DNA from: an uncultured Desulfospira sp. | GTDB lineage: Bacteria > Desulfobacterota > Desulfobacteria > Desulfobacterales > Desulfobacteraceae | Reading direction: 5' to 3' | DNA length: 64,000 nucleotides | Assembly: GCA_963663165.1 (NCBI GenBank) | Contig: OY760175.1 | Span: 4,256,001 to 4,320,000 of the forward strand | Part shown: in pieces, positions 19,631-29,403 of the stretch | How positions within the stretch are numbered: position 1 is the first letter of the stretch | How the letters are laid out: each line of letters starts with the position of its first letter | Notes under the pieces: generated by a model | Seen by the model: only the letters and a program-made list of their open reading frames with translations | Told to the model about the DNA's origin: nothing | The model's database searches: none | Made by a program: the position numbers and the translations under genes

Positions 19631-19881
19631 AATTATCTGTGTTAAGCCCTGTTTTATTCCGCCGAGCGCCGCAATAGATCATCATCAGAAAAGGAAAAGG
19701 GCGGCTATCTGGGTTAGGGTGAATGGGTCACCCAATTGTCGTTTACACATAGAAGCCGGTTTGTGTCAAGCGCAAATTTTATTAAAGATTCAATAAATTA
19801 TTTCAAATGCCGGTTTGAATACAATGCTTGCTTATATGATGTGTATAACAGGTGCCTATAACGTATGCCGGTGTTAGAGCG

Positions 19882-20178
19882 ATGCAAACACAATCAAAAA
19901 CATTGGTCAGAAAACAATTTTTCATTTCCCCAGCCCAGGTAAAAAAACTTGAAACGCTGAGTTCCTCCTTGAAAGGGCGTTCCGCTGCTCAAATTGTTCG
20001 GGATGCTATAGACGCTTATGACCCTGATGGTGAACTGGCTCAAAACCAGGAACAAGAATTATTGGCCATTGCTCATGCAAAGGTAAAAGACGCCATTGCC
20101 AGAACAGAGGCTACCATTAAAAAAGCAGATCATTGCCTTGAGAATCTTTCTGCGGTTAAAGGGGAGATCAAACAATGA
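19882..20178 (+). CDS. Ribbon-helix-helix/CopG-like DNA-binding protein
   Basis: RKQFFIS..QVKKL...SAAQIVRDAIDAY followed by a coiled coil. Confidence 0.65.
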   Translation: MQTQSKTLVRKQFFISPAQVKKLETLSSSLKGRSAAQIVRDAIDAYDPDGELAQNQEQELLAIAHAKVKDAIARTEATIKKADHCLENLSAVKGEIKQ

Positions 20179-20368
20179 CGGGTTGGAAAGAGTCGGTGTT
20201 GGACATTATCCGGCAAATACCGTTCAAAGGCTTAATGACAGAACCGAGAAATTGGCTGATCAAACCAACGGCATTGATAAACGGGTGGTTCGGCTTGAAA
20301 CTCTTGTGGCGGTTGCCGAAACAGGCCAACCGGTGCAAAAGTCATTCAAACAACGTGAATCAGAATAA
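20175..20368 (+). pseudogene. Small coiled-coil protein, apparently frameshifted (partner of the RHH gene)
   Basis: ATGA-coupled start MTGWKESVLDIIRQI; heptad continuation TVQRLNDRTEKLADQTNGIDKRVVRLETLV lies in a different frame from about 20217. Confidence 0.5.
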
Positions 20369-20807
20369 AAGGGAAACGTTTGTTTTCAACAGTCCCCTCG
20401 TTTTATGGGGCCGATGTCCATAACTATGATAATAGTCTGGGGTTTGGAATTCAGCATTTAGGGGTGTTCGTTTTTGATGTAGTCCTCGGTGAAAATTTCA
20501 ATCTATTTCATTGTTGTAAATTATCATACAACTACAGTGTGTGGACGGGGGAACTATTATCTTGGTTCCGTGTCTGGTCGAAAAATATCAATTTTGGTTT
20601 CAAGGCATTTTTTAAGAGATTGGTCATAGACGCCAACGCTATACCAGGAATCAGGTTTTTGATACAAATTGAGAATGGTCACAGAAAATCATGGAAAAAT
20701 TGAAGATAATTTGCAAGATATGTCAGGTTTGAGGCAGAAGTTCCCTTGTTTATCTCGCAAATAATCGTGAAACTCCTGCCTCCCCACCCAATAACAGGGC
20801 AGGAGAT

Positions 20808-21395
20808 ATGCTATCAGAAGTTCTAAAAAGCGAAAGTCTTTTTTGGAATCTATACAAAATAGATCTGGCAACAGCCGAACGTTATAGACAGATGAAGTGC
20901 CCCCACTGCCAGGGACCGTTGTATTATGCCAATTATCTGCGCAAACCCAGGGGGGAGCCTGAAGGGTTGTCTGAAGAATGTTTTTTACAATTCAGTTTAT
21001 GCTGCGGAAGGGAAGGCTGCCGACGGCGTTTGATCCCGCCAACCTGCCGTTTCCTTGGTAAAAACATTTACTGGTATGCGGCCATTCTGACGATTGTGTC
21101 CGACTGGCAGAACCAATCTGTAGGTATCACGATGTCCAGGTTTGCTGAAACAATCGGTATCTCCCGCAACACCCTTAGACGCTGGGTCGGTTTGTTTAAA
21201 GAAATATTTCCAACAAGCGCTCAATGGAAGAAAATCCGGGGCCGAGTGCCTGCAAGCGTGAAAAATGACAGTCTTCCGGCAAGTTTGGTCAACTTCTATC
21301 TGCATCAACAGGCATCCATCAAAGAAACGTTGATCTCCTGTTTGTCATTCTTGTCTCAAGGCAATGAAATATCACAAAAAATAAGGGCCGGGTAA
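20808..21395 (+). CDS. Transposon ORF1: Zn-ribbon plus HTH protein (DUF6431-like)
   Basis: CPHC...CCGREGCRRR and GISRNTLRRW. Confidence 0.7.
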   Translation: MLSEVLKSESLFWNLYKIDLATAERYRQMKCPHCQGPLYYANYLRKPRGEPEGLSEECFLQFSLCCGREGCRRRLIPPTCRFLGKNIYWYAAILTIVSDWQNQSVGITMSRFAETIGISRNTLRRWVGLFKEIFPTSAQWKKIRGRVPASVKNDSLPASLVNFYLHQQASIKETLISCLSFLSQGNEISQKIRAG

Positions 21396-21510
21396 TCTCA
21401 CGCAGAAGATGGGCGTGGCCTTGGGCGATCAACTGTTCTATCAAAGGGGCCGGGATTTTTATCAGCATTCCGCTGAAAATTTTAACTTAAAATTGAAAGG
21501 ACCCCGGCCT

Positions 21511-22956
21511 ATGAACAGTAAAAACCAAAGTCCGGTTGATAAATGGGCTTTGTTTCGCTTCTCAGTCGTTGGTGGTTTGCTGGCAAATCCGCCGGCCAAG
21601 GGTGAGCTGCGTAAGGAACTGGAAAAGCTTTCCAATCAGATTTACACCCATCCCATCACGAACGAATCGACGGTATTTCATTTTTCAACTATTGAAAGCT
21701 GGTATTACAAGGCAAAAAATGCCCAGGACCCCATCATTGCTTTAGGACGGAAAGTTCGTTCAGACTATGGCGGTTCAATTGTATTCACGCCTGAACTGAT
21801 CCGGATGCTGGGCAGACAATACCGGACCTATCCGAACTGGAGCTACAAACTGCACGCAGATAATTTCGCAGCAGAACTTCAAGAAAAAGCCAATTCAGTA
21901 TCGATACCATCCTATGCCAGTGTCCGGCGGCGGATGGTCGAAAGAGGGTGGACCAGGAAACCCTCAGCCAAGAAAAAACAGACAGCGGGCATGAAAACTG
22001 CCGCAACGCGGTTCGAAAGCCATGAGATCCGTGGATATGAAGCAGAATGTGTTCACAGCCTGTGGCATCTGGATTTTCATGAAGGCAGTCTGCGGGTGGT
22101 GGATAACAACGGTAACTGGTATACGCCCAAAGCCTTATGTATTCTTGACGACCACTCCCGCCTGTGCTGCCACATCCAATGGTATTCAGGAGAAACCACC
22201 CAGGATTTGATTCATGGATTGACCCAGGCCTTTTTCAAAAGGGGGCTTCCCAGGGCACTGATGACGGACAACGGATCTGCCATGACCTCCCATGAGTTTT
22301 GCAACGGGCTTAAGAAAACAGGGATACTTCATGAAACGACATTGCCCTACAGCCCTTATCAAAACGGTAAGCAGGAAGCCTTTTGGGGCACCCTTGAAGG
22401 CAGATTGATGGCCATGCTGACCCGGGTGGACCCTCTGACACTGGAATATCTCAATCACCGCAGTCAGGCTTGGGTCGAGATGGAATATAACAAAACCAGG
22501 CATAGTGACATCGGCACATCTCCTGTTCAACGCATGCTTGAAGGCAAAGATGTTTCCCGGCCGGCACCGGATGAAGAACAATTACGTTTCGCCTTTACAG
22601 TTTGCGAAGTCAGAAATCAGCGCAAGTCTGACGGTACCGTGTCCATCAACGGGGTAAGATTTGAGATCCCTTCCCGGTTTCACCATATCCCTCGGTTACA
22701 TGTCTGCTTTGCCAATTGGGATAAATCCATGGCCTGGCTCATGGACCAGAGAACCGGCAAACAGATTGCGCCGATCTACCCCCAAGACAAAATCAAAAAT
22801 GCTTCAGGAAAACGAAAGATCAAGTCGAGACCTGAACATACCATTCTACCGGATGAAACATTGAAAGAATCCGAGCCTGCATTATTAAGAAAACTGATGG
22901 CCGAGTATGCCCAAAGCGGCATGCCCCCAGCCTATCTGCCCAAAGGAGAATCATGA
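21511..22956 (+). CDS. DDE (rve/IS481/Mu-like) transposase
   Basis: WHLD, LDDHSR, TDNGSA, PYQNGKQE, YN..RHS, RKSDGTVSING; RBS before ATG 21511. Confidence 0.92.
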   Translation: MNSKNQSPVDKWALFRFSVVGGLLANPPAKGELRKELEKLSNQIYTHPITNESTVFHFSTIESWYYKAKNAQDPIIALGRKVRSDYGGSIVFTPELIRMLGRQYRTYPNWSYKLHADNFAAELQEKANSVSIPSYASVRRRMVERGWTRKPSAKKKQTAGMKTAATRFESHEIRGYEAECVHSLWHLDFHEGSLRVVDNNGNWYTPKALCILDDHSRLCCHIQWYSGETTQDLIHGLTQAFFKRGLPRALMTDNGSAMTSHEFCNGLKKTGILHETTLPYSPYQNGKQEAFWGTLEGRLMAMLTRVDPLTLEYLNHRSQAWVEMEYNKTRHSDIGTSPVQRMLEGKDVSRPAPDEEQLRFAFTVCEVRNQRKSDGTVSINGVRFEIPSRFHHIPRLHVCFANWDKSMAWLMDQRTGKQIAPIYPQDKIKNASGKRKIKSRPEHTILPDETLKESEPALLRKLMAEYAQSGMPPAYLPKGES

Positions 22957-23780
22957 ACAACAAACAGCTTCTGGCTTATTACGGCCTTAAATGGAATCCT
23001 TTTTTGTCCAATATCCCCGTGGAGGCTTTATGGCATCCGCCATTGATGAACAGTTTTATTTTTCGTCTTGAGAATATGACCCTGAACGGGGGCTTTGCTT
23101 TGATCAGCGGGGACCCTGGCCTTGGCAAATCCAAGGCGTTGCAGATGATTGCCCAAAAGTTCGGTAAACTTGACGAGGTAGTTGTCGGGGTAATGGAACG
23201 TCCCCAAAGCAGTGTCGGAGACTTTTACCGGGAAATGGGAGTTTTGTTTGGTGTCAATTTAAGCCCTGCCAACCGGTATGGCGGGTTCAAGGATCTTCGG
23301 GAGCGCTGGAGGCATCATGTAAAAACCACCTTGTTCCGGCCCATCCTGCTCATAGATGAAGCCCAGGAGATGCTGACCGGATGCTTAAATGAACTGCGTT
23401 TGTTGAACAGCGCGGACTTTGACTCCCAAAACCTGTTGACCACCGTGATTTGCGGCGATGACCGGCTCCCGGAACGGTTCAGATCAAGATCCCTGGTATC
23501 GCTGGGAAGCCGGATGCAGTTCCGGTTGACGCTGCTTCCCTATGTCCGGGATGACCTGCTGGATTACATGGATCACAGCCTGAACCAGGCCGGCGCCCCG
23601 CACTTAATGACGAAAACTCTGATCAGGACCCTTGCAGACCATTGCGCCGGCAACCTGCGGGTTCTTAACAGTATGGCCGCAGACCTGCTGGCTGCGGGGA
23701 TTGAGAAAGAACTCAATCAATTGGACGAAAAACTTTTTATGGAAGTCTATTCCAGACAGCCGCCCAATAAAAAATCATAG
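22953..23780 (+). CDS. ExeA/TniB/MuB-like AAA+ ATPase
   Basis: YGLKWNPF, Walker A GDPGLGKS, Walker B LLIDEAQ, GNLR; ATGA-coupled to the transposase. Confidence 0.88.
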   Translation: MNNKQLLAYYGLKWNPFLSNIPVEALWHPPLMNSFIFRLENMTLNGGFALISGDPGLGKSKALQMIAQKFGKLDEVVVGVMERPQSSVGDFYREMGVLFGVNLSPANRYGGFKDLRERWRHHVKTTLFRPILLIDEAQEMLTGCLNELRLLNSADFDSQNLLTTVICGDDRLPERFRSRSLVSLGSRMQFRLTLLPYVRDDLLDYMDHSLNQAGAPHLMTKTLIRTLADHCAGNLRVLNSMAADLLAAGIEKELNQLDEKLFMEVYSRQPPNKKS

Positions 23781-23789
23781 GAGAACAAT

Positions 23790-23972
23790 ATGGGTATTTA
23801 TGATGATCCGGACATGAAACTGGAAGAAATTACACAGGAATTGGAACATTTTATCCTGGATATGGTCCTTGCCGGACTTGAAAACTTGAATATGGAATAT
23901 CGGGCCTTCAGGCAATTCCAGAAACAAAGGCTCACGGAAAAGAACCGTCATAAAGAACACGAGCCGTTTTAA
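23790..23972 (+). CDS. Small hypothetical protein of the transposon
   Basis: AGGAG RBS; 60 aa; co-oriented between the ATPase and the primase. Confidence 0.55.
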   Translation: MGIYDDPDMKLEEITQELEHFILDMVLAGLENLNMEYRAFRQFQKQRLTEKNRHKEHEPF

Positions 23973-24009
23973 ACGTACGCCCGGACTCTAAAGGTCCGGG
24001 CCTGCCTCA

Positions 24010-24798
24010 ATGGAAAAAATACTATGGAAAATCGGCAATTATTTTAAGCACCGCTTCAGCCTGGCAGTTCTTGATGAAATTAAGGGCCGGTGGCCCGTTC
24101 TCCCCTCTTGTAAAAACATCCCTTATCTTAAAGCTGAAAATGCCGGAGGAAGGCACATCCTGATCAGACCTGATCCTGTTATTGAGCCTTATTATTTTCT
24201 TGCCGACGATTTAAACATTGACCTGCTTATCCGGCATCATCAATCCATATCAAACCGCTTTAAACCAGGCAGGATGGTTATGGAAACATCTCCCGGCAAT
24301 TATCAAATTTGGATTCACAGTGACCGTCCGTTAAGCCTTCCCGAAAAAAAGTATTGGTTGGAAAACATGCACAGTGATCCCGGCGCCGACCCGAAAAACA
24401 GGTGGGGCAGATGCCCCGGGTTCAGGAACAGAAAAGCAAAACATAGAACGCCTTCAGGACAATACCCTTTGGCAAAGCTATTATGGGTGGACTGGAAATG
24501 CCAGGCTATTGTCCCTGAAATAGAATTATCCTCCCGACCTCAAGAAGTCTTTTCCCATCAACCCCGGGGGGGAGTGTGCCATAACGGTAATATTTCCCGC
24601 TCCCTCTATGATAAGGGTGACGAATCTGCCACTGATTTTGCATATGCTCTGGCCCTCTATAGAAGAGGTTTTTCACGAATGGAAATTTACAATCGCATTA
24701 TCAATGAAAGGCAGGATTGGATTAATCATGCGGATGAACGAAAAAAAACACAGTATCTGATCAGGACATTACAAAAAGCTGAAAAAATTATCAGTTAA
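24010..24798 (+). CDS. RepB-type (RSF1010 RepB'-like, AEP superfamily) DNA primase
   Basis: LADDL, ETSPGNYQIW, DPGAD...GRCPGFRNRK and C-terminal helical motif DESATDFAYALAL..G. Confidence 0.8.
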   Translation: MEKILWKIGNYFKHRFSLAVLDEIKGRWPVLPSCKNIPYLKAENAGGRHILIRPDPVIEPYYFLADDLNIDLLIRHHQSISNRFKPGRMVMETSPGNYQIWIHSDRPLSLPEKKYWLENMHSDPGADPKNRWGRCPGFRNRKAKHRTPSGQYPLAKLLWVDWKCQAIVPEIELSSRPQEVFSHQPRGGVCHNGNISRSLYDKGDESATDFAYALALYRRGFSRMEIYNRIINERQDWINHADERKKTQYLIRTLQKAEKIIS

Positions 24799-26871
24799 AA
24801 TCGGGCTCTCTTGGCCTCCGGGAAAGCCCTTATTTACCATGAAACGTTGTCCATGAATTATCGTGATTGCTCTCAACAAATCCAGGCCGCGGCCGATTTT
24901 AATTGTCCAGCCATTATCGATCCTGATTTCACGGTCATGGAGATGTTCGTTTATTTTGATATCAAGCGCGATATCCAGTTCTAAAAGGCTTTGTTTTACA
25001 TCGTTCAGCCGGTCTGAAAGTTCTTTTAGGTCTGTCTGGTCATCGTAGCTCGTTAAAAGTGAAATTTTCTGGACTGTTGGTGTTTTAATCACCGCCTCAC
25101 AAAACCGGATGAAATTTTGAACCTGGTGGTTTGCCCGGATATATGGATCTTCTATCTCTATGGTTTTAGCTCCTGTCAGGTACGGGGATAAAATGGATTC
25201 ATAGCTGTATCCCGTTGCGCCATAGTTGATGGTAAAATGTTGCTCCCGAGGTTCCTCTTTTATGAGGAGTTCCGCGCCGGGTTCTTCTTCCGGTTCAGGC
25301 AGTTTTAGCTGATCCACCGAAGCAATTTTTTGTTTTTCCGCACTTTTCTGCCGGCTGTTTTCCTTTGTTCCTTCACTGCCGTGGATATCCTTTCTGACAG
25401 GTTCCTGGGTGGCGTCTGCTGTTTTTGATTCCGGGCAATAAACAACAATTTCTTGGTCTTTGCTGTTGATATACGACAAATTGATTTTTGCAAATTCATC
25501 ATCTGATTTGCGTTTGTTCATCTGCTCTTTGACACGCCTTCGGCATTCAATGGCATAGGAGACATATTCTTCAAATTCTTCATCTGAAACATTACCCGCC
25601 GGATGAAGGATTTTCAGAAAAGAGGCCACAGTCTTTTTGATGCCTTTTTCATCCCGGCCTTCAACGGATTTGCCAAGGCGAATTCGCTTGCTGACCTCCT
25701 CGTACCGGTTGGTGTGCTTGAGTTGATGGTGAAAGGCTTCGGCAAGATAATCGGTGATAAATCCGTAGTTTTTCGTTAGAAAATCACTGCTGTTTTTGGG
25801 CATTTCCCAGCCGGGCAGATAAAGGGCAAACCTGTCCATCACAGCCAGGTCAAATTCCTTGGGAAGGGGCTGAAAAAGGTCATAAACTTCTGAGTGAACG
25901 ATCTGCTGGACAGACAAGTCAAGGTTGCCCACAAAGGCCATGGATGCATCAGCAATTACCTCAACCCCACGGGAAAACCGGCCGTTGGCCATGAAATCTT
26001 TCATGATCTGAATGGTATCCTGATCCTTGACCTTGATCCCGCCGACTTCATCAAATGCCACGGTGTCCCAGAACCCGACCAGTCCGATTTTTTTCCGCTG
26101 GTTATTATAAAACAAAGTTGCTTTAGTGGCCTGGCCACCGCTGATCAGGGTTGAGTATGGTGAAAATTCACTAAAAAAGTATGACTTGCCGGTACCTCGC
26201 GGTCCAAGCTCAATAAAATTAAAATTGGGTTCAACCAGCGGGAACAATCGGGCTATGAAGTGGAGTTTCAGCCGTGGGGATAAAACCGTTGGTTCCAGCC
26301 CCACGGAACGCAAAATAATATCTATCCACTCATTGCGGGTAAGTTCGTTTCTTCCTTCGCAGTAACGCTCAAAATCGAATCGACTGAGCTGAATCGGGCG
26401 CAGGTCTTCCACATAAAAAGCATAGTCATCTTCTTCAATCTCATTATATGCGATGGTAACTTCCGCCCACAATCCACCCTGGAGCAACCGGTCATTTTCA
26501 TCAAAGTATTTATGGGCAATGGCAATCCGCCTGGAGTCGAAATTCTCTAATGCCGCCCAATGCCTGCGGTCTTTTTCCACATAATTGACGTGGACTTTAT
26601 CAATAAATCTGTATTTCCCTTTGGTCGCCACTTTGGACTGGGCTTTGTTGGCTTCATTGGGACGCACATAATTGTCATTGAGCGTTTCCAGAACCGCCTC
26701 AAGTCCGGCCTGAATTTCTGCCGGTTCATCACTGGCGCAATATCGTGCCAGCAAAAATTCCAGCACAAAGGTGGGCACATTGGTACCTTTTTTGATGCGG
26801 TGGAGCAGATCTTTGCGAACCACCTTTCCGTCAAACACTGAAATCAGTTTTTTATCTAATGCATCCATATT

Positions 26872-29403
26872 TTATACCGTATAATCTGTTTCCAAGTCGA
26901 TCTGGTCATAGGCCGTCATTGTTGTGGGATTCAATGCCTTGATTTTAAATTTGCCTTCAAATTCCATGCTCATTTTAATGGCCACCTTCACTTTCTCACC
27001 GGCCTTAAGCGTAATGACGCCGGTCGCGGGATTTACAGATCCGCCGGGCTTTGCCTCACCCACGACATTGCCTTTCTTGTCATGGGCTTCCAGCAAGATT
27101 TCAAACTCTTTATCAGGTGAAAATAGACTCTGGGAGATCGCCTGCACATCAATGACCGGCAACCTTGTTGTAATCCGTTTTGCGCCATTTTTATAGCTCA
27201 GCTCTATGGAAACATCCTTGTCATCGCCCAAGTTGCTTTGCTTCAACTGCAACTGGATCACCGGCACTACACACTCCTGGAGCGAACACCCACCATGGTA
27301 ATAAAGCAACCCGTCCCTATATGATGCCATGCTCAAAGGTCCGGCAAAACAGTTGTAATCTCCTTGGATACCAGCTTTTTCAGCCTCCACACAAAAGTGA
27401 ACGGCATCTGCCTGACCATCTCCTATCAAGGCCCGGTCATGGATATTCACCCAGTTCCCGGGCAATTTTGTACAGGTATCCCCGGGGCCTGCATGGGTAT
27501 TCATAAAAAATCCATGGTCTGTGGCAATGACCGCCTCTTCAAATCCTGCTTCCTGTAGCTTATGAACCGCCACACGAATTCGTTTAAGCGCATTGGTTAT
27601 TTCCGTGGGTGCCGTATCCGGATTATTTTCAAAATGCGTATCGATTTCCACAGACCTTAATACCAGCAGATCCGTATCCGGACTGATGTCAAAACGTTTT
27701 CGAACAAAATCCTCCAGCCGGGTCTCCTGGAAACGGCTTCCATACTTCTTTTGTATCAAATCCATGCGATGGGCAACATTGGTCACGACAATTCCATTGA
27801 CCTGGGGGGCAAACCCGGCATCGGTTTTGACCAGTTTAAAATCAACAGACGCACCGGGCAAAAGACCTGCCATTCCCACAGGGGTAATACTTGGCAGCTG
27901 CACCAATGCCGGTGTGATTTGTGCCTGGGTGTCTTCCAAAAGCTGCTTTTCCAGTTCAACACCCAGCTCATACCGCAGGGCATCCACCATGATCAAAGCA
28001 ATTTTATGGCCGCTGATTTCAAGTTTCGGGGCCACCATATTATCAAACACCTGGGTGTTCGCCATTCTGCCGGTGACCGGCCAGCCTGTCTGCTGAAAGT
28101 GCCTGGTGAAAAGAGACTGCACTTTTCCCGTGAGTACTCCATATTGCTTTCGCACAAACACCTGAACCGGCGTAAAAATCCCCTGGATATCTTTCCATAC
28201 ATAATCACTGACGGCCTGCTCAAATTCCCGGTGCCTCTGGTCCACCTCCCTGAACCGGCTGATATAAAAGTCAATCAGCGCGTCCATGGATTTCCCATGA
28301 TCCTGCAACGCCCGGTCATTATCCCGGCAGCATTCAATCAGGGTAACAGCAGATCGTAAAAAATCCCACTGGGCCTGGCTTTCTCCTTTGCCATGCCATA
28401 CCGAAGCAGCATGGTTTGAAATGATTCCCCGGGCCTGATCAATATCATCGTCCAGTAAGGCCGATATGGCATTTTTCAAAAAGGTCCGCTCTTCAAAGGG
28501 AAAGGTGTCTTTAATCCCCAGATCCCTGATATGGCTGCATGCCTCAACCAGGTTCAACCCTTGGGATTTGCTTTCTATGGATTCCGCACGCTGGACGTAG
28601 ATATTCTGGGTCCGCCGGTCATTTCGCAGGCGATCGCACAGATCTTCTATCAAAGGTCTGGCAGCCCCTGGTGCATGGGGGACATCGCTTAAACTATCGG
28701 GAAGGGATTCGGGCAGATCAAACATGAATTCGCTGAACAAAAGATAGCGCCACAATTCGTCTGCAATGGAAGACCAGGTTTTCCCTTTTGTTTTCAGGCC
28801 AAGTCCCATGCTGCCCTTTAAAAGGTCTTTTACCTCCCCCACCCAGGCGTCATTTCCTTTAAGCGCATCCAGCTGCCTGTCACTGGGACTGAGCAGGGCA
28901 AACAGGATATCCCGGGTGGATTCCACGGCCAACAACGCCCTCAGGTTGGGCCAGTTGAGACCGCCGCCAATGGCATCAATCACCGCAAAGCCTGGATTTT
29001 CATTTTCCGTGAACACAGCCCGCACCTGGGTGGCATGGTCAGGTTTGGCCTTCAGGCAGATGCTCAAATAAGTGTCCCCGTCACCGTCCGGAAAAATAGC
29101 GCCGCACGCCGGATAGAGCGCAAAGGGATCTCTTTGTTTTTCTTCATCTTCAATGGGTTTGGCTGCCGGCACATAAATCAGCAGCTGTTCTATCTCATTG
29201 CGGCCCAGGGCCGACAGCGCTTCAATGGCTTCGGCCCGGCTGGTGATACTGGAGGGACTTGCATCCACCACCCGGCGCGTGTCATCAGCCATTTCAAGGC
29301 ACAGCTGCCCATAGCGGCCATCCGGGTCATACACGGCTAAAACCTGCGCTTTTTGCAGGCGGGGTATTAATATCTCTTCCTGAATAAAGGCTTTTATGCT
29401 CAT
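26872..29403 (-). CDS. pglZ: BREX PglZ alkaline-phosphatase-fold protein
   Basis: VDALRYELG, LPSITPVGMAGLLP, ATDHGF, HGGCSLQE. Confidence 0.93.
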   Translation of the reverse strand: MSIKAFIQEEILIPRLQKAQVLAVYDPDGRYGQLCLEMADDTRRVVDASPSSITSRAEAIEALSALGRNEIEQLLIYVPAAKPIEDEEKQRDPFALYPACGAIFPDGDGDTYLSICLKAKPDHATQVRAVFTENENPGFAVIDAIGGGLNWPNLRALLAVESTRDILFALLSPSDRQLDALKGNDAWVGEVKDLLKGSMGLGLKTKGKTWSSIADELWRYLLFSEFMFDLPESLPDSLSDVPHAPGAARPLIEDLCDRLRNDRRTQNIYVQRAESIESKSQGLNLVEACSHIRDLGIKDTFPFEERTFLKNAISALLDDDIDQARGIISNHAASVWHGKGESQAQWDFLRSAVTLIECCRDNDRALQDHGKSMDALIDFYISRFREVDQRHREFEQAVSDYVWKDIQGIFTPVQVFVRKQYGVLTGKVQSLFTRHFQQTGWPVTGRMANTQVFDNMVAPKLEISGHKIALIMVDALRYELGVELEKQLLEDTQAQITPALVQLPSITPVGMAGLLPGASVDFKLVKTDAGFAPQVNGIVVTNVAHRMDLIQKKYGSRFQETRLEDFVRKRFDISPDTDLLVLRSVEIDTHFENNPDTAPTEITNALKRIRVAVHKLQEAGFEEAVIATDHGFFMNTHAGPGDTCTKLPGNWVNIHDRALIGDGQADAVHFCVEAEKAGIQGDYNCFAGPLSMASYRDGLLYYHGGCSLQECVVPVIQLQLKQSNLGDDKDVSIELSYKNGAKRITTRLPVIDVQAISQSLFSPDKEFEILLEAHDKKGNVVGEAKPGGSVNPATGVITLKAGEKVKVAIKMSMEFEGKFKIKALNPTTMTAYDQIDLETDYTV

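Follow-up and report, generated by a model that had tools for sequence, protein, structure and literature searches.

Why should a transposon of insertion-sequence (IS) size carry a primase gene of its own? The question is raised by a 4206-bp element that begins with TGAGA, ends with TCTCA and occupies positions 20670–24875 of a 64,000-nt stretch of DNA from an uncultured Desulfospira sp. (GenBank assembly GCA_963663165.1, contig OY760175.1, positions 4,256,001–4,320,000 of the forward strand); this whole stretch is referred to below as the window. The element holds five co-oriented open reading frames (ORFs; 20808–21395, 21409–22956, 22953–23780, 23790–23972 and 24010–24798), the last of which encodes a RepB′-like archaeo-eukaryotic primase (AEP) and stops 77 bp before the right end. 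A preliminary description of the locus had recognized this TG...CA unit with its imperfect inverted repeats, its rve-type transposase, ExeA/MuB-like ATPase and 60-amino-acid (aa) ORF, and the primase enclosed by the repeats, and all of this was borne out. It had gone on to propose that the primase may be core machinery of a self-priming class that matches no described family, and on both of these counts the related elements speak otherwise. By sequence comparison, the core of the element (a Zn-ribbon/helix-turn-helix (HTH) protein, a DDE transposase and an ExeA-type ATPase) is that of Tn6049, a transposon that has been named yet never classified. We put it at about even chances that the element is a Tn6049-like DDE/ATPase transposon whose 3′ slot holds a swappable module for second-strand priming in a copy-out route of transposition.

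The RepB′ primase and its embedded ssiA-like site

The last ORF (24010–24798, + strand) matches the catalytic model RepB_primase and the helix-bundle model RepB_primase_C (PF22448), both above cut-off, and its sole solved relative is RepB′ of plasmid RSF1010 (E 1e-11). Residues D66, D67, D123, R134, D204 and R252 correspond to D77, D78, D134, R145, D238 and R285 of RSF1010 RepB′, in which the catalytic residues are needed (available text of PMC8567376). The AEP residues D66, D67, D123 and R134 are shared by every one of the 120 best homologues, out of 563 matches, and at the position of D204, 85 of 119 homologues have D and 29 have N; W50 of RSF1010 is not retained, this primase having P38. 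Judged from these residues, the primase is intact and looks functional. Between the two variants of the gene in this genome, the ratio of nonsynonymous to synonymous substitution rates was 0.27, on 4 + 4 changes, which are too few to weigh. A metagenome scan with a single RepB′ query returned 6 loci, all of them close relatives within elements.

Within the linker that joins the two primase domains lies a putative priming site (24549–24578, + strand) resembling the single-strand initiation (ssi) site ssiA, with a CTTTTC hexamer, a spacer of a C-run and a G-run, and GTG at 24574–24576. The linker would be expected to be free to vary, yet its DNA is conserved, which points to selection at the DNA level: across 22 repB′ genes less than 90% identical to one another, mean homozygosity at four-fold degenerate sites was 0.87 within the site (5 sites) versus 0.32 elsewhere (44 sites, maximum 0.66), with a nominal p of 2e-4, for which neither sites nor genes are independent. 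Moreover, at locus L087 the protein frame shifts across the site while the DNA motif persists. A two-block profile built from 21 ssi-like sites, its block layout chosen in knowledge of ssiA but its letter weights not, ranked ssiA (26.0) and ssiB (21.7) at the top of an IncQ1 plasmid, where the next score was 7.7; shuffled controls gave maxima of 11 plus or minus 3, the best of 200 being 20.8. The ssiA and ssiB sequences were taken from this plasmid, and their numbering agrees with the available text of PMC8567376. An ssi-like site was found in 20 of 20 RepB′ elements; in the distant element L033 it is a weaker variant lying outside the gene. Taken as a pattern of conservation, this argues that the ssiA-like site is under DNA-level selection on the coding (+) strand.

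The likeness to RSF1010 extends to both RepB′ domains, the catalytic and helix-bundle residues, the pyrimidine hexamer, the C/G-run spacer and the GTG. The differences are that the element has a single ssi, placed inside the primase gene and 2–5 nt shorter, and has no RepC, iterons or relaxase: of the parts of an IncQ replicon (RepA, RepB′, RepC, iterons and two opposed ssi sites), it possesses only RepB′ and one site per copy.

The site also occurs apart from the primase gene. Three identical, gene-less miniature inverted-repeat transposable elements (MITEs) of 373 bp, with the ends of this family and 5-bp duplications, are present in the genome (G000:C1:2726987–2727359 (+), 5266572–5266944 (+) and 4409221–4409593 (−); locus L183). 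Each bears an ssi-like site about 75 bp from its right end, in the same orientation as in the 4.2-kb element, and a comparison with the interior of that element found zero similarity at E 1e-5. Relatives of this MITE were found in 5 of 161 genomes of the family, 4 of them other than the present one and one with a 63-bp insert; of those from other genomes, 4 were aligned and 3 retain the site. Other derivatives were also seen. A 1058-bp non-autonomous element (L147:6016–7073) comprises just the two ends and a repB′ gene that contains one stop; two truncated right-end remnants (L173:5340–5707 and L174:2640–2971) have lost the catalytic domain of the primase and pick up again at the ssi; and in two others (L154 and L155) the site is lost or damaged. 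RepB′ genes outside transposons include one beside DUF5906 and HNH genes (L157:4452–5222), whose ssi-like site is intact despite a frame change, and one on a Desulfosarcina plasmid with adjoining type IV secretion genes and weak ssi-like sites (L080:6695–8143 and 1663–1700).

Exchange of the module among Tn6049-like elements

A plasmid search with the transposase led to replicons of Cupriavidus metallidurans CH34 at 47% identity. The CH34 copy has the same gene order as the element (first gene 31%, transposase 47% and ATPase 50% identical, followed by a small ORF) and related ends, and since its copy distribution, its size and its published ends agree, we identify it as Tn6049 (ends, 4-bp repeat, distribution and size from the available text of PMC2864759 and PMC4739549). 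The end profile of the present family scores 22 bits at the right end of Tn6049 and 27 bits at both ends of the related locus L179. Tn6049, which is also found in Pseudomonas aeruginosa pHS87a, shares the TG...CA ends, the short duplication and the multicopy habit; it differs in its size of about 3.5 kb and in having no detected primase, ssi or structured motif. Its module "could not be categorized" in the accessible part of PMC6210171, and a supplementary table of Tn6049 relatives in PMC3414803, as far as it was available, has four gene columns in which primase, helicase, RepB, RepA and DnaG are absent. A search of the full-text literature by title and opening abstract returned no paper linking a Tn6049-like element with a primase or ssi; most subscription papers, ISfinder, TnCentral and supplements other than that of PMC3414803 lay outside its scope. 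Tn6048 was considered as the relative and rejected, being a 10.4-kb element of the Tn5053 family (background in the available text of PMC11952213, PMC4914505 and PMC13192273); copy pattern and ends fit Tn6049.

To survey what occupies the slot, defined as the stretch behind the ATPase, we took the best 80 of 130 matches to the transposase, which gave 78 loci, set the element ends by profile, and added loci from searches with RepB′, the ATPase and the structured motif as well as five plasmid records. From 137 stop-free ATPase hits, 16 incomplete elements were dropped, and the remaining 121 were dereplicated to 58. The slot held RepB′ in 20 of these, a RepA-type helicase in 16, a structured motif alone in 15, a DnaG-type primase (CHC2 + Toprim) in 2 and nothing recognized in 5. 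Among the 37 elements recruited by the transposase, the corresponding numbers were 7 for RepB′, 16 for the helicase, 9 for the motif, 2 for DnaG and 3 for none. The slot helicase matches RepA of RSF1010 (E 1e-8), and a conserved inverted repeat follows it in 11 of the 16 elements; 4 of these 16 have a lone CHC2 zinc finger and 1 has the structured motif. RepA and RepB′ never occurred together in one of the 58 elements. ORF1, the transposase and the ATPase are conserved across several phyla, unlike RepB′.

The expectation that the primase would be found consistently within the inverted repeats of related elements was not upheld: with RepB′ in only 7 of 37 relatives, and a primase-less relative of the motif type occupying 12 loci of a single genome, the primase does not belong to the core. 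It is rather one state of a variable position. On an ATPase tree built by a quick method, RepB′ must have changed 7 times and the motif 9 times, with no fewer than 5 changes in each case forced by branches with support of 95 or more, and sister pairs differ in their module, namely L117 (RepB′) and L163 (motif) at 98 and L033 (RepB′) and L035 (DnaG) at 97. As reconstructed from this tree, the module has repeatedly been exchanged for other replication-initiation parts. Three loci (L150, L116 and L115) have a RepB′ 77–79% identical to that of the window beside an ATPase only 55–59% identical, a discordance by which the module appears to have been exchanged between element lineages. A distant subfamily, with a transposase about 25% identical and TGTT...AACA ends, also has either RepB′ or the structured motif; one copy lies in this genome (G000:C1:5653356–5657600; L175, L211), bearing the structured motif and interrupted by a 1.9-kb IS directly after the ATPase.

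The structured motif fills the slot without a protein. In its alignment, 98.9% of cells are paired, 8 of 15 pairs show two-sided change and 0 of 500 shuffles scored as high; slid structures gave 21–51%, and the structure itself was derived from the same sequences. It was found in 0 of 22 primase-bearing elements, its covariance model had no full match in 18 RepB′, 2 DnaG and 15 RepA loci or in the MITE, and no Rfam family fell on it. The model matches 55 of 150 genomes of the family, and 36 of 50 motif loci examined adjoin this type of transposase or ATPase, the others lying beside other transposases, housekeeping genes or contig ends. Matches were also obtained in two near-identical Microviridae genomes (L193:2973–3050 and L194:2981–3058; 57 and 54 bits), in which the outer stem is replaced and its pairing preserved, and in an Acidisarcina plasmid, directly behind an IS110 transposase at the 3′ end of the IS110 element (L195:3994–4073). 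The Microviridae matches are on the coding strand, which is where a microvirus complementary-strand origin belongs. Such an origin is needed by microviruses (available text of PMC5714925). Furthermore, the motif loosely resembles RS_B plus CS-6 of ssoA, with different spacing, and GCGNAGC mini-hairpins (available parts of PMC6395029 and PMC13037366, respectively). It may have a role as RNA, since covariation cannot separate RNA from single-stranded DNA.

Routes by which the module could act

The embedded ssi-like site, its retention in the MITE and the swapping of modules favour a priming role over a passenger role, and suggest that such elements start copying their own DNA during movement. 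The self-priming idea of the preliminary description is therefore kept as to priming and given up as to the primase being core; the circle and the copy-out step are what we infer. In copy-out/paste-in transposition, one 3′-OH and a bridged strand lead by replication to a double-stranded circle (bioRxiv 10.1101/2023.06.07.543989 and PMC7780238, in the parts available). In the proposed route, the transposase would nick the right end at its 3′ CA and link this CA to a point close to the left end of that strand. The 3′-OH thereby released on the flank would prime a new + strand, and the old + strand would be displaced as a single-stranded circle. RepB′ would then bind the ssi on this displaced strand and lay a primer at the GTG, a host polymerase would finish the double-stranded circle, and transposase and ATPase would paste it in with a 3–7-bp duplication. 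The single ssi seen on the + strand would be just what is required by a circle derived from the right-end strand. The 373-bp MITE, for its part, would rely on transposase and primase supplied in trans and need its ends and ssi alone, and the module would raise efficiency or host range without being strictly required.

The insertions themselves fit such a donor. Individual, matched duplications flank each of the 11 copies in the genome, each of the 3 MITEs and, in a relative, 11 of 12 copies; they are 3–7 bp long across copies and relatives. Family-model scans of the five ORFs matched no resolvase, TnsA or TniQ/TnsD; matched, variable duplications without a resolvase gene favour simple insertion, as expected of a circle. 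IS21 (IstA + IstB) and other copy-out/paste-in IS likewise combine a DDE transposase with an AAA+ ATPase, TG...CA ends and a variable duplication, and the circles of such IS need replication to become double-stranded; the element differs from them in its AAA_22/ExeA ATPase, its extra Zn-ribbon gene and its own priming module. Correspondingly, the transposase reached 38 bits with the IS21 model NF033546 (cut-off 160), the ATPase had no IstB match, and the IS481 model NF033577 gave 106 bits (cut-off 224), IS481 having a single transposase gene versus five ORFs here. An AEP-helicase, the IS excision enhancer (IEE), is also known to act on copy-out/paste-in intermediates; as described in the available text of bioRxiv 10.1101/2023.06.07.543989, IEE differs in being encoded outside the IS, promoting IS loss and belonging to another AEP family, with no cognate cis site mentioned there.

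Several observations weigh against the copy-out reading. The hexamer-to-GTG spacer is 19–22 nt, versus 24 in ssiA and ssiB, and the hairpin predicted there, at about −3 kcal/mol versus −8 to −10, is weak and falls short of the 21-nt hairpin of IncQ sites (nt 7–27). With a score of 25.1, the MITE site lies no higher than the top of the genomic background, in which one unrelated site reaches 25.6, so that the argument rests on position and conservation. The cassette of RepB′ and ssi also occurs outside transposons, beside a DUF5906 helicase-like gene (L087 and L157), and may thus be conserved for its own sake. The 58-element set was enriched for RepB′ and motif loci by search design, and kin within it are not independent; Tn6049 itself reaches 12 copies in CH34 without a detectable primase, ssi or motif, and 5 of the 58 elements resemble it in this; and the RepA class is a loose fit, helicases being distinct from primases. 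In phages, the structured motif matched a single lineage among 50,697 records, and three pattern scans of IMG/VR gave 0 matches each. No junction of right and left ends appeared in the genome, in the fetched loci or in the contigs of four runs, contigs being apt to lose rare forms. Finally, TnsB and MuA, the best matches of the transposase ahead of IstA, are not known to form circles.

Among the alternatives, all of which we consider unlikely, the one that survives best is that the module acts outside transposition, either making incoming single-stranded DNA from conjugation or transformation double-stranded or sustaining an excised circle for a while. The nearest plasmid homologue of the primase, 44% identical, adjoins type IV secretion genes, and relaxase-linked primases convert transferred strands in recipients (available text of PMC5714925). 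In addition, the helicase with its inverted repeat in 11 of 16 RepA elements resembles a mini-origin, and multiplication within a genome is seen even for elements that have no module. Circles of TnGBS replicate, and Mycoplasma integrative and conjugative elements (ICEs) keep a stretch resembling a single-strand origin (sso) between transposase and terminal repeat (available text of PMC3942029); these Mutator-type DDE elements are like ours in forming circles and carrying replication parts, and differ in being large and conjugative with an unrelated transposase family, whereas the present elements measure 3.4–4.7 kb and have no transfer genes. The element has no relaxase, origin of transfer or RepC-like initiator, one ssi on one strand would not suffice for IncQ-type replication, which uses two, and the site is retained by a MITE that multiplies within one chromosome.

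Next in order, and likewise improbable, is that the same priming serves a nick-and-join replicative transposition like that of Mu or of type V-K CRISPR-associated transposons (CASTs), with host recombination resolving the cointegrates: a fork from the left end would displace the + strand, and the right-end ssi would prime one long lagging-strand copy. The closest solved relatives of the transposase are TnsB and MuA, with IstA next, although the matches are weak (E about 1e-5 by profile; fold searches used a low-confidence model, pLDDT (predicted local distance difference test) 57), and no TnsA-like gene is among the five ORFs. Two further observations support this alternative and count against copy-out: every module type sits near the right end of its element, as a linear template would need and a circle would not, and three copies in one RepA-type assembly (L042, L043 and L046) have 5-bp duplications crossed in a cycle. 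The latter pattern may reflect rearrangement, replicative transposition or misassembly, since recombination between copies is a further source of crossed flanks. Intramolecular replicative events cross flanks, whereas the 11 copies and 3 MITEs on the chromosome have matched duplications; the duplications vary from 3 to 7 bp, unlike those of Mu and Tn7, which are fixed at 5 bp; and in such a route the two target 3′-OH ends could copy both strands, making a primase superfluous. More broadly, Mu, Tn7, type V-K CAST and the Tn5053/Tn552 group share with the element the nearest solved transposases and the ATPase clade, and differ in that here no TnsA, TniQ or resolvase is recognized, the duplication is variable and a primase is encoded.

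In the weakest alternative the module is cargo: a primase cassette, complete in itself, would have been captured from plasmids or phage-like elements and would ride along in a slot that tolerates it, contributing nothing to mobility. The structured motif would then be an RNA element, such as a terminator or a regulatory or guide-like RNA, and not a DNA origin. This alternative draws on the sparse occurrence of RepB′ among transposase-recruited elements, on repB′ copies with stops or deletions, on the cassettes outside transposons, on the inability of covariation to separate RNA from single-stranded DNA, and on the position of the motif directly behind stop codons, including that of a transposase of the IS110 family, which has end-encoded RNAs. 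It is hard to reconcile with the 38 of 38 protein-filled slots in which either a primase or a helicase of replicative type was recognized and no further class of cargo (slot tails were screened with a chosen set of queries, which minor cargo may escape), with an ssi that outlives its gene in the MITE of several genomes, and with the mutual exclusion of motif and primase over repeated swaps.

A wider picture can also be drawn, to which, taken as a whole, we give somewhat less than even odds. In it, Tn6049-like elements would be a widespread family of IS-sized, self-priming transposons with a single-stranded intermediate and interchangeable origin modules. These modules would be RepB′ with an ssi inside its gene, DnaG, a RepA helicase plus an inverted-repeat origin, or a structured DNA that draws in host priming without any protein of its own. 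The structured DNA would represent a single-strand origin that has not been described before and that some microviruses and an IS110 element also possess, and MITEs with only an ssi would parasitize the primase. The system lends itself to direct testing, as it offers a 4-kb element that has its own primase, a cis site mapped to 30 nt and a 373-bp MITE reduced to ends and site, together with natural sister elements that differ in the module alone; if true, the picture would supply a mechanism for an uncategorized transposon family and a pointer to a new single-strand origin motif.

Ends, core genes and surroundings of the element

The element is real and recently active. Its terminal inverted repeats (left, 20670–20697, + strand, family consensus TGAGAGTGATCACGATAATTGATGGA; right, 24848–24875, − strand, with a second partial repeat inside), delimited by end comparison, agree at 20 of the first 28 bases, and the TCATGG motif reported near the ends occurs there, to a modest extent (once at the left and twice at the right end). 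ACAAAT duplications flank them at 20664–20669 and 24876–24881, as seen from the sequence and the comparison of copies. The genome has 11 copies with identical ends, 3 of them identical throughout and 8 at 97–98%, including one broken by two other insertions (in ORF1 and repB′) and one across a contig join. Each has its own duplication, of 3, 3, 4, 5, 5, 5, 5, 5, 6, 6 and 6 bp, so that the 6-bp length noted at this locus is present here but is no fixed trait of the family. Identical ends with individual duplications indicate that the unit moves as one, as had been proposed from its splitting brxL in frame; excision with one duplication does give back a 699-aa brxL frame, but any clean insertion restores the frame, which adds no evidence. 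Ten of the 11 copies share the (+) orientation in the assembly; relative to the replichores defined by GC skew the split is 6 to 5, giving no fork bias in orientation. A weak match of the end profile at six genomic sites was assigned to a different 1.3-kb repeat and set aside.

ORF1 (20808–21395, + strand) is a conserved core gene encoding a Cys4 Zn-ribbon and HTH protein, with conserved cysteines, Atlas features like DUF6431 and sub-threshold Pfam HTH matches only; two fold searches gave generic HTH matches and none specific. It is probably an end-binding or regulatory protein. The transposase ORF opens at 21409, with a likelier start at 21511 preceded by AAAGGA (21511–22956, + strand); it matches rve above the Pfam cut-off, and D188, D253 and E289 are invariant in 15 aligned sequences. 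The ExeA/GspA-type AAA+ ATPase (22953–23780, + strand) matches AAA_22 above cut-off, and a sequence search found no solved relative of it. ORF4 (23790–23972, + strand) encodes a 60-aa acidic helical protein that has small counterparts in many relatives and zero matches in Pfam, NCBIfam and Atlas. Between ORF4 and repB′ lies a hairpin with an 8-bp stem (23979–24001, + strand), which has no T-run and was not called by the terminator scan; promoter and terminator scans of the element gave chance-level results only. Rfam placed an int-alpA match near a related element (L075:1415–1481).

The target, brxL, belongs to a bacteriophage exclusion (BREX) locus with pglZ that spans window positions 24882–29403 and continues to the left of 20664. 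The 5′ part of brxL is at 24882–26868 on the − strand and its 3′ end left of 20664; the insertion falls within the C-terminal MIT_C-like domain, and the read-through frame of the interrupted gene stops within the element. Just beyond the end of brxL, at window positions 19852–20368, are two small + strand ORFs (108 aa, and 90 aa or shorter), the first of which looks by eye like a ribbon-helix-helix protein and has no above-cut-off Pfam match. Elsewhere in the genome, one copy of the element (G000:C1:3867756–3871961) is a mosaic of its two variants, being of the window type at about 1485–2856 and of the major type otherwise.

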